From assembly GCA_963728945.1 (NCBI GenBank), contig CAVSMA010000002.1, forward strand, positions 738,723 through 802,722: DNA of 64,000 nt. Direction: 5' to 3'. Position numbers and translations under genes: made by a program. Positions 2,202 to 62,079 of the stretch are shown here, one piece after another. How positions within the stretch are numbered: the first letter of the stretch is position 1; each line of letters opens with the position of its first letter. The notes beneath the pieces were generated by a model. That model saw only the letters and a list, made by a program, of their open reading frames with translations. It ran no database searches and had not been told where the DNA came from. This DNA comes from an uncultured Actinomycetota bacterium (GTDB taxonomy: Bacteria > Actinomycetota > Actinomycetes > Mycobacteriales > CADCTP01).

Positions 2202-3005
2202 CGGCGGCGAGCCGAGCACCGGCGCCCGCGGTCCCAGCGCGGCCGGCACCAGCAGCAGCCCGGCGACCAGCGCATACCCGCCCTCCTTGAGCACGGCCGC
2301 CCCGCCCGGCGCCGGCGCCAGCGTGAGCGGTCCCGCGACCGGCGTGGCGAGCAGGAACAGCAGCGCCCCGGCCGCCGCCCAGCAGGTCCCCGAGGCCGCG
2401 GCCAGCTGCCCCAGCCAGCCGGGCACGCCGCGGCGGGCCAGCGCGGCGACGGCCATCCCGACCGCGAACCAGTCCAGGTGACCGGGCAGCCACAGCAGCA
2501 TCCGGTCGGGCAGGTCGAGCAGGTGCACCGCGACGATCCACGCGTACGCGAGGACGACGCAGCCGGCCAGCACCGGCCACTCCCACCGCCGCGCGAGCCA
2601 CACCAGCCCGGGCAGCACCAGGTAGAACGCGACCTCCGGGACCAGCGACCAGGTCTGGGTGAGCGCGCCGGCGAGCGGCTCGGTCCGGTAGCCCTGCCCG
2701 AGCCACCAGTACGCGGCCGGCACCGAGCCGATCACGGCCACCACCGCGAGCAGCACCCAGTACGCCGGCAGGATGCGGGCGGCCCGCCGCAGCGCATACC
2801 GGCCGACCGGACGGGTCCGCGGGTAGAGCAGGAAGCCGGACAGCACGAAGAACACCGCGACGCCGACGTCGAGGCGGCCCAGCACCGCGCCGCCGGCACC
2901 GGCCTGGGTCTGCCCGGTCCGGAACGCGACGTGGGTCAGCAGCACCGCGCCGGCAGCCACCGCACGCAGGCCGTCCAGCGCCGGCATCACCCGCCGCGCA
3001 CTCAT
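1782..3005 (-). CDS. acyltransferase family 3 (membrane O-acyltransferase)
   Basis: The N-terminus MPALDGLRAVAAGAVLLTHVAF is typical of acyltransferase_3. The protein has multiple TM helices and ends with LLERPALRLA. By hand count, G/C at third positions is near-total in 1980-2100 in this frame. Confidence 0.8.
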   Translation of the reverse strand: MSARRVMPALDGLRAVAAGAVLLTHVAFRTGQTQAGAGGAVLGRLDVGVAVFFVLSGFLLYPRTRPVGRYALRRAARILPAYWVLLAVVAVIGSVPAAYWWLGQGYRTEPLAGALTQTWSLVPEVAFYLVLPGLVWLARRWEWPVLAGCVVLAYAWIVAVHLLDLPDRMLLWLPGHLDWFAVGMAVAALARRGVPGWLGQLAAASGTCWAAAGALLFLLATPVAGPLTLAPAPGGAAVLKEGGYALVAGLLLVPAALGPRAPVLGSPPLRLLGRWSYGIFLWHLVVLDAVYRVTGWPDFSGRTVAVAVLTALGATALGGLSWVLLERPALRLADVLAGWGTRRVGGAPSRRRARRGPVHQRGGDQAQRGGGEPLVRRLHPAGAGVDGEQHTGERERAARAGSPPPPR

Positions 3006-3152
3006 CCGGACACCGTACGGCCCGGTCAGGTCACGATGCGGTTACGAGGAGCCGCCTTACCCGTGGTCGGATGTCCCGTTCATCCAACACTCGCTGGTAA
3101 CCTCCGCCCACCTGATCATGGGTCGGCCGGTTGGGGCGATGAGGGGAAGGCC

Positions 3153-4103
3153 ATGCGGCGGTTCTTGGGCCCGGCGCTGCTCGGCGTCGGCGTCTTCCTG
3201 GTGGTCCTCGGCGGGCTGCTGAAGTTCTACGTGGCCGACCGGGTGATCCTCACGCCGATCGACCAGTACGCGCAGACCACCTCGCCCGGTCCGGGTTCCT
3301 TCCTCGACCCGGCCACGCTGCAGGTGCGCTCCTCCGACCTCGTCGCGGTCCGCACGCTGCGCGGCGACGTCGCCGCCAGCAACCGGGACACCGCGGTCTG
3401 GGACGTCTCGGTGGTGCTGTCCACCGGCGACCAGCAGCTCGTCCAGGCCAGCGTCGACCGGGTCGCCACCGACCGGCGCACCGCCGAGGCGGTGAACTGC
3501 TGCGGCGAGGCGGTCAACTCGGTGCCGACCCGGCACAGCGGGCTGTCCTACAAGTTCCCGTTCGACACCCAGAAGCAGACCTACCAGTTCTGGGACGCCA
3601 ACGTGAAGAAGGCCGTGCCGGCGCGATACGTCTCCGAGGAGACGGTGCAGGGCCTGACGACATACAAGTTCGTCTCGCAGATCGACGCCACCCAGATCCA
3701 GACCCAGGAGGTGCCCGGGTCGCTGGTGGGGGAGAGCGCGCCGAGCGTGCAGGCGCCGGTCTACTACACCGACACCCGTACGGTCTGGGTCGAGCCGAAG
3801 ACCGGCGTGATCGTCAAGGGCAGCGAGCAGAACCGGACCACCCTGCGGGACAGCGCCGGGCAGGACAAGACCGTCGTCCTGCAGTTCGACCTGACCTTCA
3901 ACGAGGACAGCCAGCGCAGCCAGGCCCAGCTGGCCCGGGACAACATCGGCAAGATCGACCTGCTCACCACCTGGCTGCCGCTGATCGGCCTGCTCGTCGG
4001 CATCGTGCTCATCATCGCCGGCGTGATCATCATGTTCTCGGCCGACCGCGGCACCGGTCGCCACGCCGAGCAGCCCGAACCCGCCGGCACACCGTCGGGG
4101 TAG
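3153..4103 (+). CDS. DUF3068-like membrane-anchored protein (N- and C-terminal TM helices)
   Basis: ATG 3153 follows gaggggaagg. The N-terminus is MRRFLGPALLGVGVFLVVLGGLLKFYVADRV. The C-terminal TM helix is LLTTWLPLIGLLVGIVLIIAGVIIMF. The upstream part of ORF 2478..4103 is antisense to the acyltransferase. Confidence 0.7.
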   Translation: MRRFLGPALLGVGVFLVVLGGLLKFYVADRVILTPIDQYAQTTSPGPGSFLDPATLQVRSSDLVAVRTLRGDVAASNRDTAVWDVSVVLSTGDQQLVQASVDRVATDRRTAEAVNCCGEAVNSVPTRHSGLSYKFPFDTQKQTYQFWDANVKKAVPARYVSEETVQGLTTYKFVSQIDATQIQTQEVPGSLVGESAPSVQAPVYYTDTRTVWVEPKTGVIVKGSEQNRTTLRDSAGQDKTVVLQFDLTFNEDSQRSQAQLARDNIGKIDLLTTWLPLIGLLVGIVLIIAGVIIMFSADRGTGRHAEQPEPAGTPSG

Positions 4104-14809: not shown

Positions 14810-14882
14810 GCGGACGTGGCTCAGTTGGTAGAGCATCACCTTGCCAAGGTGAGGGTCGCGGGTTCGAATCCCGTCGTCCGCT
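14810..14882 (+). tRNA. tRNA-Gly (GCC)
   Basis: The acceptor is gcggacg/cgtccgc. The anticodon arm is tcacc-ttGCCaa-ggtga. The T-loop is ggttcgaatcc. Confidence 0.93.
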
Positions 14883-14934
14883 CGGAGACGCCCTCGGGTG
14901 TCCTGTCGGTCTCCCGAGGTCACTCGGGCTTCCT

Positions 14935-15006
14935 GGCGGAGTGGCCGAGTGGCATAGGCAAGGGCCTGCAAAGCCCTGTACGCGGGTTCGATTCCCGCCT
15001 CCGCCT
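14935..15006 (+). tRNA. tRNA-Cys (GCA)
   Basis: The acceptor is ggcggag/ctccgcc. The anticodon arm is agggc-ctGCAaa-gccct. The T-loop is ggttcgattcc. Confidence 0.92.
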
Positions 15007-15007
15007 C

Positions 15008-15082
15008 GGGCGCTTAGCTCAGCGGGAGAGCGCTTCCCTGACACGGAAGAGGTCACTGGTTCAATCCCAGTAGCGCCCACCA
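15008..15082 (+). tRNA. tRNA-Val (GAC), CCA encoded
   Basis: The acceptor is gggcgct/agcgccc. The anticodon arm is cttcc-ctGACac-ggaag. The T-loop is ggttcaatcc. The 3' end is acca. Confidence 0.93.
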
Positions 15083-32535: not shown

Positions 32536-32607
32536 GGGCGATTGGCTCAGCGGGAGAGCGCCTCGTTCACACCGAGGAGGTCACTGGTTCGATCCCAGTA
32601 TCGCCCA
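32536..32607 (+). tRNA. tRNA-Val (CAC)
   Basis: The acceptor is gggcgat/atcgccc. The anticodon arm is cctcg-ttCACac-cgagg. The T-loop is ggttcgatcc. No CCA is encoded. Confidence 0.92.
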
Positions 32608-52684: not shown

Positions 52685-54559
52685 ATGACCACGCAGCCGG
52701 ACGATCTTCGCAGCGAGCCGGCCACGCCGCCCGGCGGCGGCGAGCAGAGCCCGCTCGCCCCGGACCCCGACCGGACGGACGCCGGCCCGGCGATGGAGCC
52801 GGCGACCGGCCGTCCGACCGCGCCGGCGGGCGCGGTGGCGACTGCTGAGCCGGTCGAGGCCGGTGGCGCCGAGGGGTCGGCCGTGGGGGACGGCGACGCC
52901 GGTGGGGCCACGGAGGCGGCGGGTCGGCGCCGGCGGCGGTGGTTCCGGTACACGCTGCCCGGGGCGGGCGGCGCCCTGCTGTTCACCTGCCTGGCGTTCA
53001 CGCCGTCCCTGCTGCCGCGCGGTGCGGTGGTGCAGGGCCTGGTCTGCGGGATCTCCGCGGCGATCGGCTACGGCGTCGGCGTGGTCGCGGCCTGGGTCTG
53101 GCGCGCGTTCGCCGACCGGGACGAGCGCCCGGCCCGGACCACCGCGTGGCGCGTCTTCGCCGTGATCGCCGTCGTCGCGCTCGTCACCGCGTTCGTGCTG
53201 GGCCAGCGCTGGCAGGGCGAGATCCGTGACCTCATGGGGATGGCGGGAGACAACCCGGCCGCTCTGGTGCTGGTCCCGGTGCTGGCCGCCGTCGTTTTCG
53301 TCGCCCTGGTCGCCCTGGGCCGCGCCCTGCGGGCGGCCTACCGCTGGTTGGCCCGGCTGCTCGGCCGCTGGATCGGACCCAGGGCGGCCCGCGCGGTCGG
53401 CTGGGTCACGGTCGTCGGCGTCACCATCGCCCTGGTCAGCGGCGTCCTGCTGGACGGGCTCGTCTCCGCCGCGGACGAGGCGTTCTCGGTGCGCAACGGG
53501 ATCACGATCGAGGGCGCGCAGCAGCCCACCGTCGAAACCCGCTCCGGGGGACCCGGCTCCCTGGTCGCGTGGGACAGCCTGGGCCGCGAGGGCCGGAAGT
53601 TCACCGGGCTCGGGCCGACGGCGTCGGACATCTCCGCGTTCGCCGGCGGGCCGGCGCTCGCACCGATCCGGGCGTACGCCGGCCTGGAGTCGGCCTCGTC
53701 GACGGAGGACCGGGCGAACCTGGCCGTGGCCGACCTGGAACGCGCCGGCGGCTTCGACCGCCGGTACCTCGTCGTCGCCACGACCACCGGCAGCGGCTGG
53801 GTCGACCCGGCGGCGATCGACACGGTCGAGTACATGACCGGCGGCGACTCGGCGATCGTCGCGATCCAGTACTCGTACCTGCCGTCCTGGATCTCCTACC
53901 TGGTCGACCAGAAGCGCGCCCGGGAGGCCGGCCGGGCCCTGTTCGACGCGGTCTACGGCAAGTGGTCGGCGCTGCCGCAGGACAGCCGGCCCCGGTTGCT
54001 GGTCTTCGGCGAGAGCCTCGGCTCGTTCGGCGGGGAGACCGCGTTCAGCGGGGAGCAGGACCTGCGCAACCGTACGCAGGGCGCGATCTTCGCCGGACCG
54101 CCGAACTTCAACACGCTCTTCCGGGAGTTCAGCGACACCCGCGACCCCGGCAGTCGCGAGGTCGCGCCGATCTACCGGGACGGCCGGACCGTCCGGTTCG
54201 ACGACCACCCCGGGCCGCCGGTCGAGCCGGCGTCCGTCCGCTGGGACGGGCCGCGGGTGCTCTACCTGCAGCACCCGTCCGACCCGATCGTCTGGTGGAC
54301 CCCGCGGCTGCTGCTGACCGAGCCCGACTGGCTGCGCGAGCCGCGCGGCCACGACGTCCTCGGCAGCGTGCGCTGGATCCCGTTCGTCACCTTCTGGCAG
54401 GTCACCGCGGACCTGCCGTTCGCCACCGAGGTGCCCGGCGGGCACGGGCACAAGTACACCTCGGAGTACGTGGACGCCTGGGCGACCGTGTTGCAGCCCT
54501 CCGACTGGACCGAGGCGAAGTCGGCCCGCCTCCGCGAGATCGTCGCCGGCGTCGACTGA
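52685..54559 (+). CDS. membrane-anchored alpha/beta-hydrolase (Abhydrolase_9-like)
   Basis: ATG 52685 follows cagggagg (alternative 52631). There are four to five N-terminal TM helices. The nucleophile elbow is VFGESLGSFGG. LYLQHPSDPIVWW is present. Confidence 0.7.
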   Translation: MTTQPDDLRSEPATPPGGGEQSPLAPDPDRTDAGPAMEPATGRPTAPAGAVATAEPVEAGGAEGSAVGDGDAGGATEAAGRRRRRWFRYTLPGAGGALLFTCLAFTPSLLPRGAVVQGLVCGISAAIGYGVGVVAAWVWRAFADRDERPARTTAWRVFAVIAVVALVTAFVLGQRWQGEIRDLMGMAGDNPAALVLVPVLAAVVFVALVALGRALRAAYRWLARLLGRWIGPRAARAVGWVTVVGVTIALVSGVLLDGLVSAADEAFSVRNGITIEGAQQPTVETRSGGPGSLVAWDSLGREGRKFTGLGPTASDISAFAGGPALAPIRAYAGLESASSTEDRANLAVADLERAGGFDRRYLVVATTTGSGWVDPAAIDTVEYMTGGDSAIVAIQYSYLPSWISYLVDQKRAREAGRALFDAVYGKWSALPQDSRPRLLVFGESLGSFGGETAFSGEQDLRNRTQGAIFAGPPNFNTLFREFSDTRDPGSREVAPIYRDGRTVRFDDHPGPPVEPASVRWDGPRVLYLQHPSDPIVWWTPRLLLTEPDWLREPRGHDVLGSVRWIPFVTFWQVTADLPFATEVPGGHGHKYTSEYVDAWATVLQPSDWTEAKSARLREIVAGVD

Positions 54560-54652
54560 GTGCGCGGGCGCCACCGGGAGGTGGGCGCCGCGACCGGGTC
54601 GGCGGGCACCACCCGGCGGCGGGGCGGGTGCGGTCGGCCGGACAATGGGGCG

Positions 54653-55267
54653 GTGACGGTGCCGGCGGAGCGGCTGGCCGAGGCGGTCGCCGCGGCCGGC
54701 CGGGTGCTGGTCGACGTCGGCTGTGGGGACGGCCGGCACACCGTGCGGTGGGCCGAACGCCAACCGGACGCGCTGGTCGTCGGACTGGACGCGGAGACGA
54801 CCCGGCTGGACCGGTCGGTTGCCGTTGCGCGGAAGCGGAAGCTCGCGGTCGTGTTCGTGACGGCGGTGGCGGAGCACCCGCCCGAGCCGCTGCGGGGGCG
54901 GTGTGCGGAGATCGCGGTCGTGATGCCGTGGGGCTCCCTGCTGGACGGGATCCTCGGCGCGGATCCGGACGTGCTGCGCGCGGTGCTCGGGCTCGGTGCG
55001 CCGGGCGCGACCCTGGACGCGGTGGTCAACGTGCGGCCGTGGGACGCGCCGGCCTCGGTCGACCGCAAGCTCGCCGCGACGCCGGAGCCGACCTCCGAAC
55101 ACCTCGAGCGGCTCGTCGGCGTGTACGCGGAGCTGGGCTGGGCGCTGGAGCCGGCCGGCCTGCTCTCCGACGCCGACGCCCGCGGGCTCGGCTCGACCTG
55201 GGCGTCCCGGGTGGTCGCCGCCCGGGCCAGCCGGCTGCTGCGGCTGCGCGCGGTGGAGAAGTCGTGA
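54653..55267 (+). CDS. KamB/NpmA-family 16S rRNA (adenine1408-N1)-methyltransferase homolog
   Basis: VLVDVGCGDGRH (motif I), VVGLDAETTRL, VVMPWGSLLDGILG and GSTWASRV are present. These parallel KamB's VLDVGTGDGKH, VVALDA, VLMPWGSLLRGVLG and ETSWTRRL as I remember them. An alternative start, GTG 54560, directly abuts the upstream stop. Confidence 0.7.
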   Translation: MTVPAERLAEAVAAAGRVLVDVGCGDGRHTVRWAERQPDALVVGLDAETTRLDRSVAVARKRKLAVVFVTAVAEHPPEPLRGRCAEIAVVMPWGSLLDGILGADPDVLRAVLGLGAPGATLDAVVNVRPWDAPASVDRKLAATPEPTSEHLERLVGVYAELGWALEPAGLLSDADARGLGSTWASRVVAARASRLLRLRAVEKS

Positions 55268-56313
55268 AGCCGATACGGCTGACCGCGGCCGGCCACCCGG
55301 CGGTGACCGGCCGGCACGACAAGACGCTGGAGCTGACGGCGGCCGACTCGATCACCGCCCGGGCGACCTGCATCGTGGCCGTGTCCGCCGGCCCGCTGCC
55401 GGGCGACCTGCCGATGCTGCGCGAGCGGGTCCGGCTCACCCTGTCGGCGGGCGGGGTGAGCGCCGCGGTCGACGGCGAGGTCAACCCGGGCTGGCACTCG
55501 GCCGAGTCGCTGATCATCCGCCGCAGCGGCGCGCTCGACCCGGACACCTACCTGGCCAACGCCACCGGCGCGGCGGCCGACCTGCCCCCCGACCTGCTGG
55601 CCGCGTTGCGCGAACCCGCGGCGACGATCGAGGTGTCCGTCGAGGAGCTGGGCACGCCGACCCCGGTCGTGCTCGTGCTGACCGGGGGCCCGGCCACGGA
55701 CGAGATCGCCCGGCTCGCCGCGCAGGCCGACCTGGTCGTGGACCTCACCGGCCGGGGCGCTCCGCCGCCGCCCGTCCCGCTCAGCGCACCCCGCCGGCAC
55801 CGGATCCCGACCGGGGAGACGGCCCGCACGACGGTCGTCCTGACCGAGGATCCAGCCGCCGCGTTGCCGCTGACGACCGGCAACCGGGTCGTCCTCTGGC
55901 CTCCGAACCCGGGCGCCGACCTGCTGCTGTCCGCCGGGCGACCGCCGACCCCGCTCCTGCGGGCCGGCACCGCGAACCGCGAGCTCGCGCGGCTGCTGGC
56001 CGCGACTCCGGCGCCCGCGCTCGTCGACCTGGCCGGCGCCGACCCGGCCGAGCTGGCCCCCGACCACACCGTCCTCGCCGACGGCGCCGGGCTCGGCTGG
56101 GGCGTCCGGGCCACCGACGGGGCGCACGGAAGCCGGGTCGTGCTGGTGCCGCCGCCGAAGGACACGATCGGCATCGAGGCGGCCGAGCTGGCCCGGTTGC
56201 TGCGCGCGGCCGGGCGGTCCGGCAGGGACGCCGCCGCCGCGCTCACCGCGCTCGGCGTGCCGCGGCGGGAGGCCTACCGGCTCGCTGCGGATTCGGCTCG
56301 CCACCCTCGATAG
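55264..56313 (+). CDS. fusion: N-terminal DUF371 domain + C-terminal degenerate RsmI-like (tetrapyrrole-methylase-fold) domain
   Basis: There is a GTGA overlap with the upstream gene. DUF371-like part: [37 protein letters not shown]...SLIIRRS. The C-terminal part ends [25 protein letters not shown], like the RsmI C-terminus. The assignment of the C-terminal part is by eye only. Confidence 0.6.
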
Positions 56314-56356
56314 CATCGGCGTACCAACCGAGCACCACCGTGCACCAGGAGGAACC

Positions 56357-58510
56357 GTGTCGTCGCAGCCGTCTCCGTCCGCCGTTCCCGCCAGCGTGGC
56401 GGTCGCGGCCGGCACGACGGCCGCCGACGCGCTCGCCGCCGCCGGGGTGCCGCTGACCGGCCCGTCCGGCGCTGTCGTCGTGCGCGACCTCGGCACCGAC
56501 GCGCTCAAGGACCTCGACTGGGTGCCGGACGAGGACGCCAGGGTCGAGCCCGTCCCGCTGGACTCCGGTGCCGGCCGGTCGGTGCTGCGGCACTCGACCG
56601 CGCACGTCATGGCCCAGGCCGTGCAGGACCTGTTCCCGGGCACCAAGCTCGGCATCGGCCCGCCGATCGAGAACGGCTTCTACTACGACTTCCTCCCGGC
56701 CCGCCCGTTCACCCCGGACGACCTCGACCGCATCGACAAGCGGATGCAGGAGATCGTCAAGGCCGGGCAGCGCTTCTCCCGCCGGCCGGTCTCGGACGAC
56801 GAGGCGCGCGCCGAGCTGGCCGACGAGCCGTTCAAGCTGGAGCTGATCGGGCTCAAGGGCGCCGCCGAGGACACCGAGGGCGCCTCGGCCGAGGTCGGCG
56901 CCGGCCAGCTGACCATGTACGACAACCTCGACAAGGGCGGCGAGCGGGTCTGGACCGACCTGTGCCGGGGCCCGCACCTGCCGACCACCCGGCTGATCCC
57001 GGCCTTCAAGCTGATGCGCTCGGCCGCGGCGTACTGGCGGGGGTCGGAGAAAAACCCGCAGCTGCAACGGATCTACGGCACCGCCTGGGAGAGCCGGGAC
57101 GCGCTCAAGGAACACCTGCGGCTGCTGGCCGAGGCCGAGAAGCGCGACCACCGCCGGCTGGGCACCGAGCTCGACCTGTTCAGCTTCCCCGAGGAGATCG
57201 GCTCCGGGCTGCCGGTGTTCCACCCCAAGGGCGGGATCATCCGGCGCGAGCTGGAGGACTACTCACGGCGCCGGCACATCGCCGCCGGATACGAGTTCGT
57301 CAACACCCCGCACATCACCAAGGGCCACCTGTTCGAGGTCTCCGGCCACCTGGACTGGTACGCGGAGGGCATGTACCCGCCCATGCAGCTGGAGGGCGCG
57401 CAGTATTACCTCAAGCCGATGAACTGCCCGATGCACGACCTGATCTTCCGGGCCCGCGGCCGGTCGTACCGCGAACTGCCGCTGCGGATGTTCGAGTTCG
57501 GCACCGTCTACCGGCATGAGAAGTCCGGCGTCGTGCACGGGCTGACCCGGGTGCGCGGCCTGACCATGGACGACGCGCACATCTTCTGCGCCCCGGAGCA
57601 GGTCGCCGACGAGCTGCGCTCGCTGCTCACCTTCGTGCTCGACCTGCTGGCCGACTACGGGCTGGACGACTTCTACCTGGAGCTGTCCACCCGCAACCCG
57701 GAGAAGTCGATCGGCTCGGAGGAAGTCTGGGAGGTCGCGACCGAGACCCTGCGGTCGGTGGCCGAGGAGTCCGGGCTCGAGCTGGTCCCCGACCCCGGAG
57801 GCGCCGCGTTCTACGGGCCGAAGATCTCCGTCCAGGCGCGGGACGCGATCGGGCGGACCTGGCAGATGTCGACCATCCAGCTGGACTTCATGCTGCCGGA
57901 CCGGTTCGAGCTGGAATACCAGGCCGCGGACGGGTCGCGGCAGCGGCCGGTGATGATCCACCGGGCGCTGTTCGGCTCGATCGAGCGATTCTTCGGCATC
58001 CTCACCGAGCACTACGCCGGCGCGTTCCCGGCCTGGCTGTCGCCGGTGCAGGCGGTCGGCATTCCGGTGACCGACGCGCACGTGCCGTACCTGTCGGCGT
58101 TCGCCGACCGGCTGCGGGCCGAGGGCGTCCGGGTCGACGTGGACACCTCCGACGACCGGATGCAGAAGAAGATCCGCACCTGGACCAGGCAGAAGGTGCC
58201 GTTCCTGCTCATCGCCGGGGACGACGACGCCGGTGGGGGCACCGTGTCCTTCCGCTACCGGGACGGGTCGCAGCGCAACGGCGTGCCGCTGGACCAGGCG
58301 GCCGAGGAGATCCTGGCGACCATCCGCGGCCGGGTGAACGCCGGGCCGTCGGCGGCGCTGTTCGACGAGGCCGAAGCCGCCGAGCCGGGCGCCGGCGCCG
58401 GTACGGCGGTCGAGGCCGCCGCCGCCGGCGAGCTCGCGGCCGAGCGGGCGGCGGTCGAGCGGGTGGCGGCCGGCGACGGGCTCTCGGGGGAGGGGAGCGC
58501 GCCGGCGTGA
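56357..58510 (+). CDS. thrS: threonine--tRNA ligase
   Basis: [11 protein letters not shown], class II motifs ([41 protein letters not shown]) and QMSTIQLDF are present. The GTG start follows caggagg. There is an Ala-rich C-terminal extension. Confidence 0.97.
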
Positions 58511-59115: not shown

Positions 59116-61275
59116 TCAGTCCTGGTTGGCGGCCGCGATCGCCTTGCGCGCCTCGTGCTCCGGCATCGGGTCGTGCCGCAGGTAGCGCCGGGTGAACCGG
59201 CCGGTCCCGGCGGTGATCGAGCGGAGATCCACCGCGTATCGCAGCAGCTCGATCTCCGGCACCTCGGCGTTGACCACCGACCGTTCGCCGCCGATCGACT
59301 CGGTGCCGGTGACCCGGCCGCGCCGGCCGGACAGGTCGCTCATCACCGCGCCGACGTACTCGTCGGGCACGGTCACCGAGACCGACTGCAGCGGCTCGAG
59401 CAGCGAGATCGTCGTCGCCTTCGCCGCCTCCCGCAGCGCCAGCGCGCCGGCCACCTGGAACGCGGCGTCCGACGAGTCGACGCTGTGCGCCTTGCCGTCG
59501 ACCAGGGTCACCTTGAAGTCGACCACGGGGAACCCGGCGGCGACCCCGCGTTCCATCTGCTGCCGCACGCCCTTCTCCACCGAGGAGTGGAACTGCACCG
59601 GCACCGAGCCGCCGACGACCTTGACCTCGAACTCGAACCCGCCGCCGGTCGGCAGCGGCTCGACCTCGATGTCGCAGATCGCGAACTGCCCGTGGCCGCC
59701 GGACTGCTTGACGTGCCGGCCCTTGGCCGACGCCTTGCCCGCGAACGTCTCCCGCAGCGGAACGACGACGGGCACGGTCTCCAGCTCGACCCCCTGCTCG
59801 CGCAGCCGGTCGAGCAGCACGTCGGCGTGCGCCTCGCCCATGCACCACAGCACCAGCTGGTGCGTCTCCGCGTTGCGCTCCAGCCGCAGCGTCGGGTCGC
59901 CGGCGGTGAGCTTGGTCAGCCCCTTGGCCAGCGAGTCCTCGTCCGAGCGGGTCTTGGCCCGGACCGCGATCGGCAGCAGCGGCTCGGGCATGTCCCACGG
60001 CGCGACCAGCAGCGGCTCGTCCTTCGCCGAGATCGTGTCGCCGGTCTCCGCACTGGCCAGCTTGGTCACCGCGACGATGTCGCCGGCGACGGCGAAGTCG
60101 ACCGGTCGCAGCGTCGCCCCGAGCGGCGAGAACAGGTGCCCGACGCGCTCGTCGGTGTCGTGGTCCTCGTGCCCGCGCGCGGCCAGCCCGTGCCCGGCCA
60201 CGTGTACGGACAGGTCCGGCTTGAGCGTCCCGGAGAACACCCGCAGCAGCGACACCCGTCCCACGTACGGGTCGACGGTCGTCTTGACCACCTCGGCGAC
60301 CAGGGGGCCGGCCGGGTCGACGGCCAGCGGCTCGTGCGGGCTGCCGTCGATGTCGGTCACCGGCGGCAGCGCGTGCTCGGCCGGGGTCGGGAAGGCGCTG
60401 GTGAGCACCTCGAGGATGGCCTCGGCGCCGAGGCCGGAGGAACCGCAGGCGGCCAGCACGGGGTAGAACGAGCCGCGCGCGACCGCGGTCTCCAGGTCGT
60501 CGACGAGCGTCTCGATCGGGATGTCCTCGCCGCTGAGGTAGCGGTCCATCAGCGACTCGTCCTCGGACTCCGCGATGATGCCCTCGATCAGCTCGTTGCG
60601 CGGGCCCTCGATGAGCTCCAGGTGCTCCGGGTCGGCCGGCCGCTCGACCAGGCTGCCGCTGGAGTAGTCCTGCACGGTGCGGGACAGCAGCCCGATCAGG
60701 CCGCCGATGGTGCCGTCGTCGGCGTGCAGCGGCAGGTAGAGCGGCAGCACGTTGTCGCCGAACACCCGGCGGCAGACGGCGACCGACTCCTCGAAGTCGG
60801 CCCGCTGGTGGTCGAGCCGGGTCACCACCACCGCCCGCGGCATGCCGACCGCGGCGCACTCCTCCCAGAGCGCGATCGTGGTGGCGTCGACGCCGTCGAC
60901 GGAGGAGACCACGAACATCGCGGCGTCGGCGGCGCGCAGGCCGGCGCGCAGCTCGCCGACGAAGTCCGCGTAGCCGGGGGTGTCGAGCAGGTTGACCTTG
61001 ATCCCGTTGTGCTCGAACGGGGCGACCGACAGCGACACCGAGCGCTGCTGCTTGACCTCGGCCGGGTCGGAGTCGGACACGGTGGTGCCGTCGGGCACCG
61101 TGCCGGCCCGCGGGATCGTGCCGGTGGCCAGCAGCAACCCTTCCACCAGGGTGGTCTTGCCGGAGCCGGAATGGCCCACGACCGCGACGTTGCGGATCTG
61201 CTCGGGGCGGTCGACCGCCGCCGCCGCGACGACCGCCCCGCGGTCAGCTCCCTTGGTGGACCCTTTCGACGCCAT
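59116..61275 (-). CDS. fusA2: elongation factor G paralog (EF-G2-like GTPase)
   Basis: G1 is VAVVGHSGSGKTTL. Also present are DTPGYADF and TRLD. Domains II-V are full length. ATG 61275 follows ggagg. Confidence 0.9.
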   Translation of the reverse strand: MASKGSTKGADRGAVVAAAAVDRPEQIRNVAVVGHSGSGKTTLVEGLLLATGTIPRAGTVPDGTTVSDSDPAEVKQQRSVSLSVAPFEHNGIKVNLLDTPGYADFVGELRAGLRAADAAMFVVSSVDGVDATTIALWEECAAVGMPRAVVVTRLDHQRADFEESVAVCRRVFGDNVLPLYLPLHADDGTIGGLIGLLSRTVQDYSSGSLVERPADPEHLELIEGPRNELIEGIIAESEDESLMDRYLSGEDIPIETLVDDLETAVARGSFYPVLAACGSSGLGAEAILEVLTSAFPTPAEHALPPVTDIDGSPHEPLAVDPAGPLVAEVVKTTVDPYVGRVSLLRVFSGTLKPDLSVHVAGHGLAARGHEDHDTDERVGHLFSPLGATLRPVDFAVAGDIVAVTKLASAETGDTISAKDEPLLVAPWDMPEPLLPIAVRAKTRSDEDSLAKGLTKLTAGDPTLRLERNAETHQLVLWCMGEAHADVLLDRLREQGVELETVPVVVPLRETFAGKASAKGRHVKQSGGHGQFAICDIEVEPLPTGGGFEFEVKVVGGSVPVQFHSSVEKGVRQQMERGVAAGFPVVDFKVTLVDGKAHSVDSSDAAFQVAGALALREAAKATTISLLEPLQSVSVTVPDEYVGAVMSDLSGRRGRVTGTESIGGERSVVNAEVPEIELLRYAVDLRSITAGTGRFTRRYLRHDPMPEHEARKAIAAANQD

Positions 61276-61449
61276 TGGCCGCCTCCGGTCGTCCGTGCTG
61301 GTCTCCCGCGTCCTGCGATTCGACACCCTCCGCATGCGCACCGACAAGACTTCCGACGGACTTGGCAGGAAACACCGCGGTCCCGGCGCACGGCGGCCGG
61401 CCGGCCAGGCTCCGCCGCGTAGCGCCGCACCACTAAGGTGGGCCGCACC

Positions 61450-62079
61450 ATGACCGGTCTCTTCTCCCGCGGCCTGTTCTCCCGCAGCGGCTGGGGACGG
61501 GTGATGGGGCCACTGATCCGCTGGCTGGTCAAGCACGGCGTCACCGCCAACACGGTGACCGTGGTTGGCACGCTCGGCGCGATGGCCGGTGCCCTGGTTT
61601 TCTACTCCCGCGGCGTCTTCTTCGTCGGCACGCTGGTCATCTGGGCGTTCGCGATGCTCGACTTCGTCGACGGCTCGGTCGCCCGGGCGCAGGGCGGCTC
61701 GACGGTGTTCGGCGCGGTGCTCGACTCGACCCTCGACCGGGTCGTCGACGCGGCCGTGTTCGGCTCGCTCGTCTGGTGGTTCGCCGGCGCCGGCGACTCG
61801 ACGCCGCTGCTGCTGGCCTGCCTGCTCTGCCTCGTCCTCGGCTCGGTCGTGTCCTACGTCAAGGCCAGGGCCGAGGGTGCCGGGCTGCGCTGCGACGTCG
61901 GGCTGATCGAGCGGCCGCAGCGGCTGACCACCGCGCTGGTCGGCACCGGCCTCGACGGGCTCGGCGTGCCGTACGTGCAGGCGATCGCGCTGTGGGCGCT
62001 GGTCGCGCTGTCGGCGTACACGGCCTGGCAGCGGCTGGTCGAGGTGCACCGGCAGTCCCGGGCGGTGCAGCAGGGGTGA
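61450..62079 (+). CDS. pgsA1: CDP-alcohol phosphatidyltransferase (phosphatidylinositol-phosphate synthase type)
   Basis: The motif is DFVDGSVARAQGGSTVFGAVLDSTLDRVVD (Dx2DGx2AR..Gx3Dx3D). ATG 61450 follows aaggtggg (alternative GTG 61438). Confidence 0.85.
   Translation: MTGLFSRGLFSRSGWGRVMGPLIRWLVKHGVTANTVTVVGTLGAMAGALVFYSRGVFFVGTLVIWAFAMLDFVDGSVARAQGGSTVFGAVLDSTLDRVVDAAVFGSLVWWFAGAGDSTPLLLACLLCLVLGSVVSYVKARAEGAGLRCDVGLIERPQRLTTALVGTGLDGLGVPYVQAIALWALVALSAYTAWQRLVEVHRQSRAVQQG

Follow-up and report, generated by a model that had tools for sequence, protein, structure and literature searches.

What does the gene that overlaps the end of an aminoglycoside-resistance-type rRNA methyltransferase gene encode, and does its position mean anything? 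This question is raised by a 64,000-nucleotide stretch of DNA (hereafter the window; G+C content ~75%) from an uncultured Actinomycetota bacterium (Mycobacteriales, CADCTP01; GenBank assembly GCA_963728945.1, contig CAVSMA010000002.1, positions 738,723–802,722). A first-pass annotation, made by eye, had read the second gene of the pair (55264..56313, + strand; 349 aa in translation, GTG start, TAG stop) as a DUF371 domain fused to a degenerate relative of RsmI, the 16S rRNA C1402 2'-O-methyltransferase, and as coupled to a homologue of the A1408 methyltransferases. The latter form the Kam family (e.g. KamB, KamC, CacKam, and NpmA), which confers very high-level resistance to many aminoglycosides and has been studied as stand-alone proteins. 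Here, we report that the C-terminal region of the fusion protein is homologous to RsmI, with most catalytic features eroded, and that its gene is tied to Kam genes across actinobacterial genomes. On balance, these sequence-derived observations favor a 30S-docking pseudoenzyme that would be accessory to the adjacent Kam enzyme or to m1A1408-modified subunits.

The fusion gene is coding and under purifying selection, as indicated by its homologues, its predicted structure, and its substitution pattern. A search of 5.8 billion proteins returned 92 homologues (E ≤ 1e-3), nearly all of 330–430 aa and nearly all containing DUF371. The AlphaFold2 (AF2) model of the full-length protein reached a mean predicted local distance difference test (pLDDT) of 93.5 and a predicted template modelling score (pTM) of 0.83, with a pLDDT of 91.5 in the C-terminal domain. 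Ratios of nonsynonymous to synonymous substitution rates (dN/dS) were below 1 in all three parts of the gene (0.23–0.66 overall; 0.26–0.46 in DUF371 and 0.23–0.66 in the RsmI-like core). For comparison, the same genome pairs gave 0.21–0.48 for Kam (leaving out the pair of the window and locus L007) and 0.14–0.39 for ThrS.

Residues 129–349 are homologous to RsmI over their full length. They comprise a trimmed core of the class III (tetrapyrrole-methylase) fold (residues 129–300, 55648..56163, +) that appears catalytically degenerate, followed by an RsmI-type C-terminal three-helix (helix-turn-helix) domain (residues 303–345, 56170..56298, +). As a single sequence, the C-terminal 221 aa gave no match in Pfam or NCBIfam: TP_methylase (PF00590) was not matched even at E ≤ 1, and the NCBIfam RsmI models did not rise above threshold. 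Profile searches were informative. The full-length profile of 52 sequences retrieved from the PDB two DUF371 structures and E. coli RsmI (9pzg_V, E 3.1e-6; 5hw4_A, E 1.7e-3), and the C-terminal-domain profile alone also found 9pzg_V (E 1.6e-6). Against 1.84 billion cluster representatives, the C-terminal profile matched only 241 proteins (E ≤ 1e-3), of which the top ~45 were DUF371 fusions and the rest mostly proteins of ~275–300 aa plus shorter fragments. Among the sampled matches of ~280 aa, all 33 contained TP_methylase (PF00590) and 16 contained RsmI_C, which identifies them as canonical RsmI; such proteins were matched at E 1e-9 to 1e-5. One distant homologue of the fusion protein gave a weak, sub-threshold match to Pfam RsmI_C.

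Profile–profile and fold comparisons agreed with this assignment. Aligned to an RsmI alignment with hhalign, the family scored a probability of 98.9 (E 1.4e-17) over 230 columns, from about residue 20 of RsmI to its C-terminus, and the core without the C-terminal helices still scored 95 (E 4e-8, 179 columns). Controls with Kam, reversed RsmI, three column-shuffled RsmI alignments, and the DUF371 domain remained at probabilities of ≤0.3% (E ≥ 0.2). In a Foldseek search of the PDB with the C-terminal part, class III methyltransferases filled all of the top 50 places; 3kwp and 9pzg_V, both of the RsmI family, ranked first (E 1.9e-4 and 4.8e-4; probability 0.99). The proposed order of RsmI-like elements up to the terminal helices, and with it the relation to the tetrapyrrole-methylase fold, was thus borne out by three kinds of search. 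A hidden Markov model (HMM) of RsmI run over the whole window matched only the C-terminal-domain segment of the fusion protein (E 1.8e-5); no canonical rsmI was found within these 64 kb.

To which extent has the RsmI machinery survived? We mapped residues via hhalign for 13 lineage representatives, using an E. coli RsmI reference sequence that matches 25/25 numbered residues in two papers and, over its C-terminal 170 residues, the PDB alignment. In RsmI, the cofactor S-adenosylmethionine (SAM, AdoMet) is contacted by I21, T95, I98, D100, A124, Y169, E170, L198, and M228, and the substitutions D100K and A124L abolish its binding (PMC5053481). An essential Mg2+ is held by E44, D92, and D100, and the E44A variant is inactive (PMC13037946). 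In the fusion proteins, the β1–α1 loop with I21-G22-N23 is deleted in 12/13 representatives, including that of the window. D100 is absent in all 13 (P202 in the window protein), and at the position of A124 the representatives have P, K, G, or a gap (P216 in the window protein). E44 is deleted in the window's clade, with an equivalent kept in some other clades (L001, L017, L034, and L047), and the counterpart of D92 is T194, two residues away from D196. None of E170, R174, L198, and K200 is retained, the SAM pocket has its three loops shortened by 6, 9, and 5+9 residues, and a proline-rich coil takes the place of the αB-β3-αC segment. Unwinding of 16S rRNA helix 44 (h44) by RsmI involves N23, F144, R174, R196, K200, T201, and W202 (PMC13037946); the positions of N23, F144, R174, K200, and T201 are deleted or occupied by P, A, G, or a gap, with a less certain alignment in β8–β9. 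Taken as sets, the AdoMet residues (D100, A124, and the I21 loop), the Mg2+ ligands (E44, D92, and D100), and the h44-unwinding residues are not retained, consistent with the eroded SAM-binding signature noted in the first-pass annotation. The fusion protein is, as far as its sequence tells, an RsmI-derived paralogue that should not be filed as RsmI, because the defining catalytic features of RsmI are absent. The best-conserved block of its core, 18 residues long, matches the β5–α5 segment of RsmI.

The C-terminal domain shows the opposite pattern. RsmI without this domain loses activity, and its auxiliary protomer anchors on 16S rRNA helix 23b (h23b) via K260, K274, and Y278 (PMC13037946). 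The AF2 model of the window protein places three helices at residues 306–315, 320–329, and 334–343, aligned to RsmI residues 246–285, and all three h23b-contact positions are represented: K260 corresponds to R321 (R/K in 12/13 representatives), K274 to R334 (kept in 12/13), and Y278 to Y338 (13/13, and invariant in the 52- and 32-sequence alignments). We infer that what the auxiliary protomer requires would be kept, whereas features needed only by the catalytic protomer would be lost. Net charge and isoelectric point (pI) per domain were also considered as a clue to RNA binding and were dropped: the pseudo-core is acidic (median pI 5.3), and real RsmI cores and Kam proteins are net negative as well.

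A 434-aa DUF371 protein (P0092; L098:2590-3894) carries a fuller RsmI-like domain (269 aligned columns), in which the position of the Gly-rich loop is kept as S-G-E and D100 and A124 are still lost. Its gene shares 4 bp with the gene for a Ser/Thr protein kinase. This protein may stand for an intermediate or for a subfamily that is wired differently.

The N-terminal part (residues 4–128, 55273..55647, +) is a DUF371 domain, an eight-stranded RIFT-related barrel. The assignment made at first reading stands well above the gathering score of Pfam DUF371 (PF04027; residues 7–126, E 3.8e-17, 62.9 bits vs. a cutoff of 25, profile positions 2–130 of 133), and the motifs quoted in its support (23 residues in all, plus LIIRRS) are present and fall on invariant or near-invariant columns of 52 homologues (G10, H18, T21, E23, C36, R86, and S88). 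The family profile matched the archaeal protein MTH639 (3cbn, E 8.4e-19). With the AF2 model, Foldseek recovered the eight-stranded duplicated barrel of 3CBN and 7Y7N (E 2.2e-12, TMt 0.76, and E 5e-11, TMt 0.81, respectively). Eight polar or glycine positions (G10, H11, H18, T21, E23, C36, R86, and T95) individually reach ≥85% conservation, in 32 actinobacterial fusions as well as in 30 archaeal proteins, and the domain is kept in every fusion; DUF371 probably retains a biochemical function of its own. The archaeal relatives (MTH639, PDB 3CBN; the M. ruminantium protein, PDB 7Y7N) resemble the window's domain in Pfam match, profile, fold, and conserved polar residues, but are single-domain proteins of ~137 aa, whereas the window's domain is fused to a dead RsmI. 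In ECOD, DUF371 is grouped with PTS IIA-Gut, and a putative active-site position is described as conserved (PMC4256011); this classification was the only paper containing "DUF371" as a whole word in the literature searched, the coverage of which was incomplete. Two Methanobacteriales loci with standalone DUF371 genes had no methyltransferase or ribosome-related neighbours. In both, a stretch of 350–380 nt without a called gene follows the DUF371 gene (L051:4414-4797 and L052:4411-4765), with a PF02594 (PF1765-like) gene after this gap and a DUF123 gene upstream on the opposite strand.

The neighbouring gene (54653..55267, +) encodes a Kam/NpmA-family homologue of 204 aa. Its start at GTG 54653 was inferred from 204-aa orthologues in four loci (L006, L008, L011, and L035); the longest open reading frame (ORF) begins at GTG 54560. 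The protein matches Pfam NpmA (PF24675) with E 1.4e-45 (155.7 bits vs. a cutoff of 60), and among solved structures it is closest to KamB (3mq2, E 4.5e-27) and CacKam (E 1.6e-22), in accordance with the original reading of this gene as an A1408 methyltransferase homologue. It keeps the family-invariant residues D21, G23, G25, D46, P92-W93-G94, W183, and R186, of which D21, G23, G25, D46, PWG92–94, and W183 are invariant among 16 family members including KamB; the NpmA profile, the SAM motif, and the two catalytic tryptophans are all present. None of the NCBIfam equivalog or exception models (KamB, WarA, NpmA, and NpmB) was matched above cutoff (best: self_KamB, 119 bits vs. 350), and the putative enzyme is assigned at the family level only. 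A1408 methylation and aminoglycoside resistance have been demonstrated experimentally for its relatives CacKam, KamB, and NpmA (PMC4705659). Compared with KamB and CacKam, the β2/3 linker of Kam proteins in the window's clade is missing its "KPAKGGxPN" segment and carries a shorter "ARKRKL" instead; in NpmA and KamB, this linker is the positively charged docking surface for 16S rRNA.

Is the pairing conserved? A genome scan with one genome per species returned 45 loci, from Mycobacteriales-labelled metagenome-assembled genomes (MAGs), Jatrophihabitans, Streptomyces, Saccharopolyspora, Actinokineospora, Kineosporiaceae, Micromonosporaceae, and Thermoleophilaceae. A Kam-family gene was directly adjacent in 41/45; the other four loci are truncated on one side, where the contig stops. 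The arrangement varied: Kam lay upstream on the same strand with a 4-bp overlap (11 loci), a ~600-bp gap (4), or a 20-bp gap (2), upstream and divergent (15), downstream and convergent (8), or downstream on the same strand (1). Across 12 lineage-representative loci, Kam and the fusion gene were the only broadly shared regions, with differing flanks. The pair spans two classes (Actinomycetes and Thermoleophilia), all within one phylum. The co-occurrence that the first-pass annotation had named as a check extends well past the window's clade, across six arrangements and unrelated flanks, and the linkage of the fusion gene to genes for Kam-type m1A1408 16S rRNA methyltransferases is near-obligatory and rearrangement-proof.

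In the window, start and stop codons of the two genes overlap as GTGA (55264..55267, +; 4 bp), as read directly from the sequence, in agreement with the coupling described at first reading. Every intact locus of the window's clade (L002–L011, L013, L014, L035, and L045) has the same overlap, and the order Kam, 4-bp overlap, DUF371 gene, thrS, and HIT is kept in contigs with homologues down to 42% identity. The overlap suggests translational coupling.

The Kam gene of a Catenulispora MAG had been overlooked by the gene caller; it lies 65 bp downstream of the DUF371 gene and is the orthologue of the crystallised, active CacKam (E 6e-115). KamB nests within the partner-associated Pseudonocardiales Kam clade (rough neighbour-joining tree). 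The exact KamB sequence is recorded only as a PDB chain without a contig, so four close KamB/KamC-clade genes, picked by Kam similarity alone, stand in for it: those of Goodfellowiella, Actinoalloteichus, Crossiella, and Saccharopolyspora (the last named KamC by NCBI). All four have an adjacent DUF371 gene. Among 24 full-length Kam genes in a metagenome scan, the partner, counted by DUF371-domain matches only, was present in eight; it was not found beside eight others with ≥1.3 kb on both sides, several of which are low-GC. A broad-family HMM of the C-terminal domain, applied to six-frame ORFs, was dropped since it produced off-frame matches in GC-rich DNA (e.g. L053 and L064). Dependence goes in one direction: Kam exists and functions without the partner, whereas the partner practically never occurs apart from Kam, with P0092 and its subfamily as the one exception (no Kam gene within its 7-kb contig). 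The window's neighbour belongs to a family (KamB, KamC, CacKam, NpmA, and Kmr) in which a CacKam orthologue and KamB/KamC-clade genes carry the partner; it is absent beside NpmA-like genes and beside many Kam genes from the environment.

How could a dead RsmI serve a Kam enzyme? To start unwinding h44, RsmI takes A1408 into a pocket made up of T19, P20, and D92, and C1402 methylation is abolished when this step is blocked (PMC13037946). The tie to Kam would thereby gain a concrete reason, because the nucleotide that RsmI captures to reach C1402 is the Kam target. Housekeeping h44 methylations are also known to suffer interference from resistance methyltransferases (PMC12406665). We propose that the protein combines an N-terminal DUF371 barrel, with the same His/His/Glu/Cys/Arg/Thr constellation as in archaeal DUF371 proteins, a trimmed core derived from RsmI without the residues for SAM binding, Mg2+ binding, and h44 unwinding, and an intact three-helix domain with the auxiliary-protomer residues for h23b. 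Such a protein would no longer methylate anything. It could dock on the platform and h44 surface of the 30S subunit in the manner of the RsmI auxiliary protomer, as a homodimer or paired with another protein, and then act as an accessory factor for the adjacent Kam or for m1A1408-modified subunits. It might position or time A1408 methylation, manage a conflict between m1A1408 and RsmI, protect or compensate the RsmI step, or bring the DUF371 module to the decoding centre. The targeting or regulatory partnership already suggested for this gene pair, like 30S binding itself, is inferred from these comparisons.

Several observations weigh against this proposal. CacKam on its own confers resistance in E. 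coli and methylates 30S subunits in vitro (PMC4705659), and KamB confers resistance alone in E. coli (PMC12406665, PMC4705659); the partner is therefore not required for catalysis and would be accessory. The TM-scores of the Foldseek matches to RsmI are low (~0.3), so the subdomain arrangement in the AF2 model differs from that of RsmI and the fold evidence alone is modest; RsmI-like docking may not be preserved in such an arrangement. By our reading of the RsmI structure (PMC13037946), RsmI and NpmA-type enzymes would occupy overlapping 30S surfaces, which makes simultaneous RsmI-like docking and Kam binding sterically uncertain. The pseudo-core evolves faster than the DUF371 domain, and the P0092 gene lacks a Kam neighbour. 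Finally, most SAM contacts in RsmI are made with main-chain atoms (PMC5053481), so sequence erosion is no strict proof that SAM binding has been lost.

This last point bears on the idea that the protein is still an active, highly divergent RsmI-type 2'-O-methyltransferase acting on another nucleotide near A1408. True homology of the core to RsmI, the E44 equivalent in L001, L017, L034, and L047, and the annotation of one distant member as RsmI by the Joint Genome Institute (JGI) could be accommodated by such an enzyme; the complete absence of D100 (13/13), the replacement of A124 by P, K, G, or a gap, the deletion of the β1–α1 loop (12/13) and, in the window's clade, of E44, the shortening of all three pocket loops, and the missing Pfam TP_methylase match at E ≤ 1 could hardly be, and we regard retained activity as very unlikely. 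Even less probable is that the adjacency is a historical accident without a functional link. All loci do come from one phylum and Kam works without its partner, but chance inheritance would have to explain a pair that stays intact through six orders and orientations, unrelated flanks, and two classes, in 41/41 loci with both sides observable and beside 4/4 independently picked Kam genes.

The remaining explanations accept a functional link and place it elsewhere. If DUF371 were the functional module, as an enzyme or a ligand or metal sensor, the dead RsmI would be only an adaptor for ribosome targeting, and the target would be the decoding centre or m1A1408-containing subunits (for processing, reversal, sensing, or quality control) instead of Kam. 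DUF371 is the slowest-evolving part of the protein (dN/dS 0.26–0.46 vs. 0.23–0.66 for the core) and is present in every fusion, its polar constellation is common with archaeal standalone proteins at ≥85% and thereby points to a conserved biochemical site, and its ECOD grouping with PTS IIA-Gut includes a putative active-site position (PMC4256011). However, no DUF371 protein of known function appeared in the literature searched, where only the ECOD paper names the domain, and the two archaeal loci, without methyltransferase or ribosome-related neighbours, offer no tie of the domain to RNA chemistry; we consider this explanation rather unlikely, yet the strongest of the competitors. It seems decidedly doubtful that the protein regulates Kam directly, as an inhibitor, chaperone, or timing factor that binds the methyltransferase, confines A1408 methylation to the proper assembly stage or condition, and thereby limits its fitness cost. 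Kam enzymes have measurable fitness and fidelity effects (PMC12406665); CacKam has an auto-occluding β6/7 linker that its authors proposed to control turnover (PMC4705659); and the one-way dependence together with the 4-bp overlap, which implies stoichiometric co-production, would suit a regulator. Such a role leaves the invariance of the h23b-contact residues unexplained, and in many lineages the genes are divergent or convergent and not co-translated. A broader form of the docking proposal, in which the dead-RsmI scaffold is the ribosome-bound organiser of a multi-enzyme module for h44 modification, is also unlikely. The organiser would anchor on h23b as the RsmI auxiliary protomer does and handle or open the A1408 region. 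It would coordinate Kam, as the base methylase, with a ribose methylase (housekeeping RsmI or the clustered SpoU/TrmH-family enzyme described below), or arbitrate between the two, with DUF371 adding catalysis or sensing. If true, intrinsic m1A1408 resistance in actinomycetes, including the self-resistance of KamB/KamC producers, would be a two- or three-component system.

With 30S docking as the favored role, the fusion protein can be placed among known systems. RsmI (YraL; PDB 5HW4 and 9PZG) is alike along the whole chain, in its class III fold and C-terminal three-helix domain; the fusion protein differs by the added N-terminal DUF371 and the lost SAM, Mg2+, and h44 residues, and its gene is tied to Kam, whereas rsmI is a universal housekeeping gene. 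Dead methyltransferase paralogues serve as RNA-binding or scaffold subunits in the pairs METTL14 with METTL3 and Trm6 with Trm61. The likeness lies in a paralogue under selection that has lost cofactor binding and kept substrate-docking elements. METTL14 and Trm6, however, pair with their own active paralogues, while the genomic partner of the fusion gene is an unrelated class I methyltransferase for a neighbouring nucleotide.

Within the literature searched, the identity of the fusion protein and its linkage to Kam appear undescribed; the Kam papers covered (PMC4705659, PMC12406665) treat the enzymes as stand-alone and mention no partner gene, with incomplete literature coverage. Our analysis suggests that Kam-type enzymes have a so far undescribed partner. 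A conserved partner beside actinomycete Kam would revise views on the regulation, fitness cost, and 30S recognition of these resistance enzymes, provide the first functional context for DUF371, and add a bacterial case in which a dead methyltransferase paralogue has been turned into a module for ribosome docking. Because an RsmI-derived protein is tied to Kam and RsmI captures A1408 (2026 RsmI–30S structure), crosstalk between resistance and housekeeping methylation of h44 becomes directly testable.

Other genes recur near the pair. A minimal 164-aa SpoU/TrmH-family 2'-O-methyltransferase (PF00588, E 1e-26) clusters with it in 19/45 genome loci: in L021 (3413-3907, −), L024, L026, and L029, and, mostly at ~2740-3335 (+), in L016, L017, L019, L020, L022, L023, L025, L027, L028, L036, L037, L038, L040, L042, and L049. 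The window itself contains no copy. The gene is always convergent with Kam, and lies between Kam and the DUF371 gene in four Streptomyces loci and on the far side of Kam in 15 Jatrophihabitans-type loci. Its product falls below every NCBIfam equivalog cutoff, has TARBP1 and TrmH as closest structures, and is ~60% identical between Streptomyces and Jatrophihabitans-type loci, a higher conservation than that of Kam or the fusion protein. It is suggestive that a dead ribose methyltransferase should have a live one, with a different fold, beside it.

Within the window, Rfam scans at gathering level and promoter and terminator scans of 54300–56500 found nothing between the Kam and fusion genes; the only Rfam matches at this level in the 64 kb were four tRNA genes, three in tandem and one elsewhere (14810-15079; 32536-32607, +). 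In the window's clade, some database entries show apparent read-through products, a Kam–DUF371 fusion (L012:3377-4924) and a DUF371 gene running into the thrS frame (P0045); these seem to stem from frameshifts or from faulty assembly of GC-rich MAGs and not to be true fusions. Downstream of the fusion gene follow thrS, a HIT-family gene and, just beyond, a long ORF for an EF-G-like GTPase (59116-62049, −), whose orthologous loci encode GTP_EFTU, EFG_III, EFG_IV, and EFG_C domains. It is a further translation-related gene near the Kam/fusion pair, but its synteny is specific to the window's clade.

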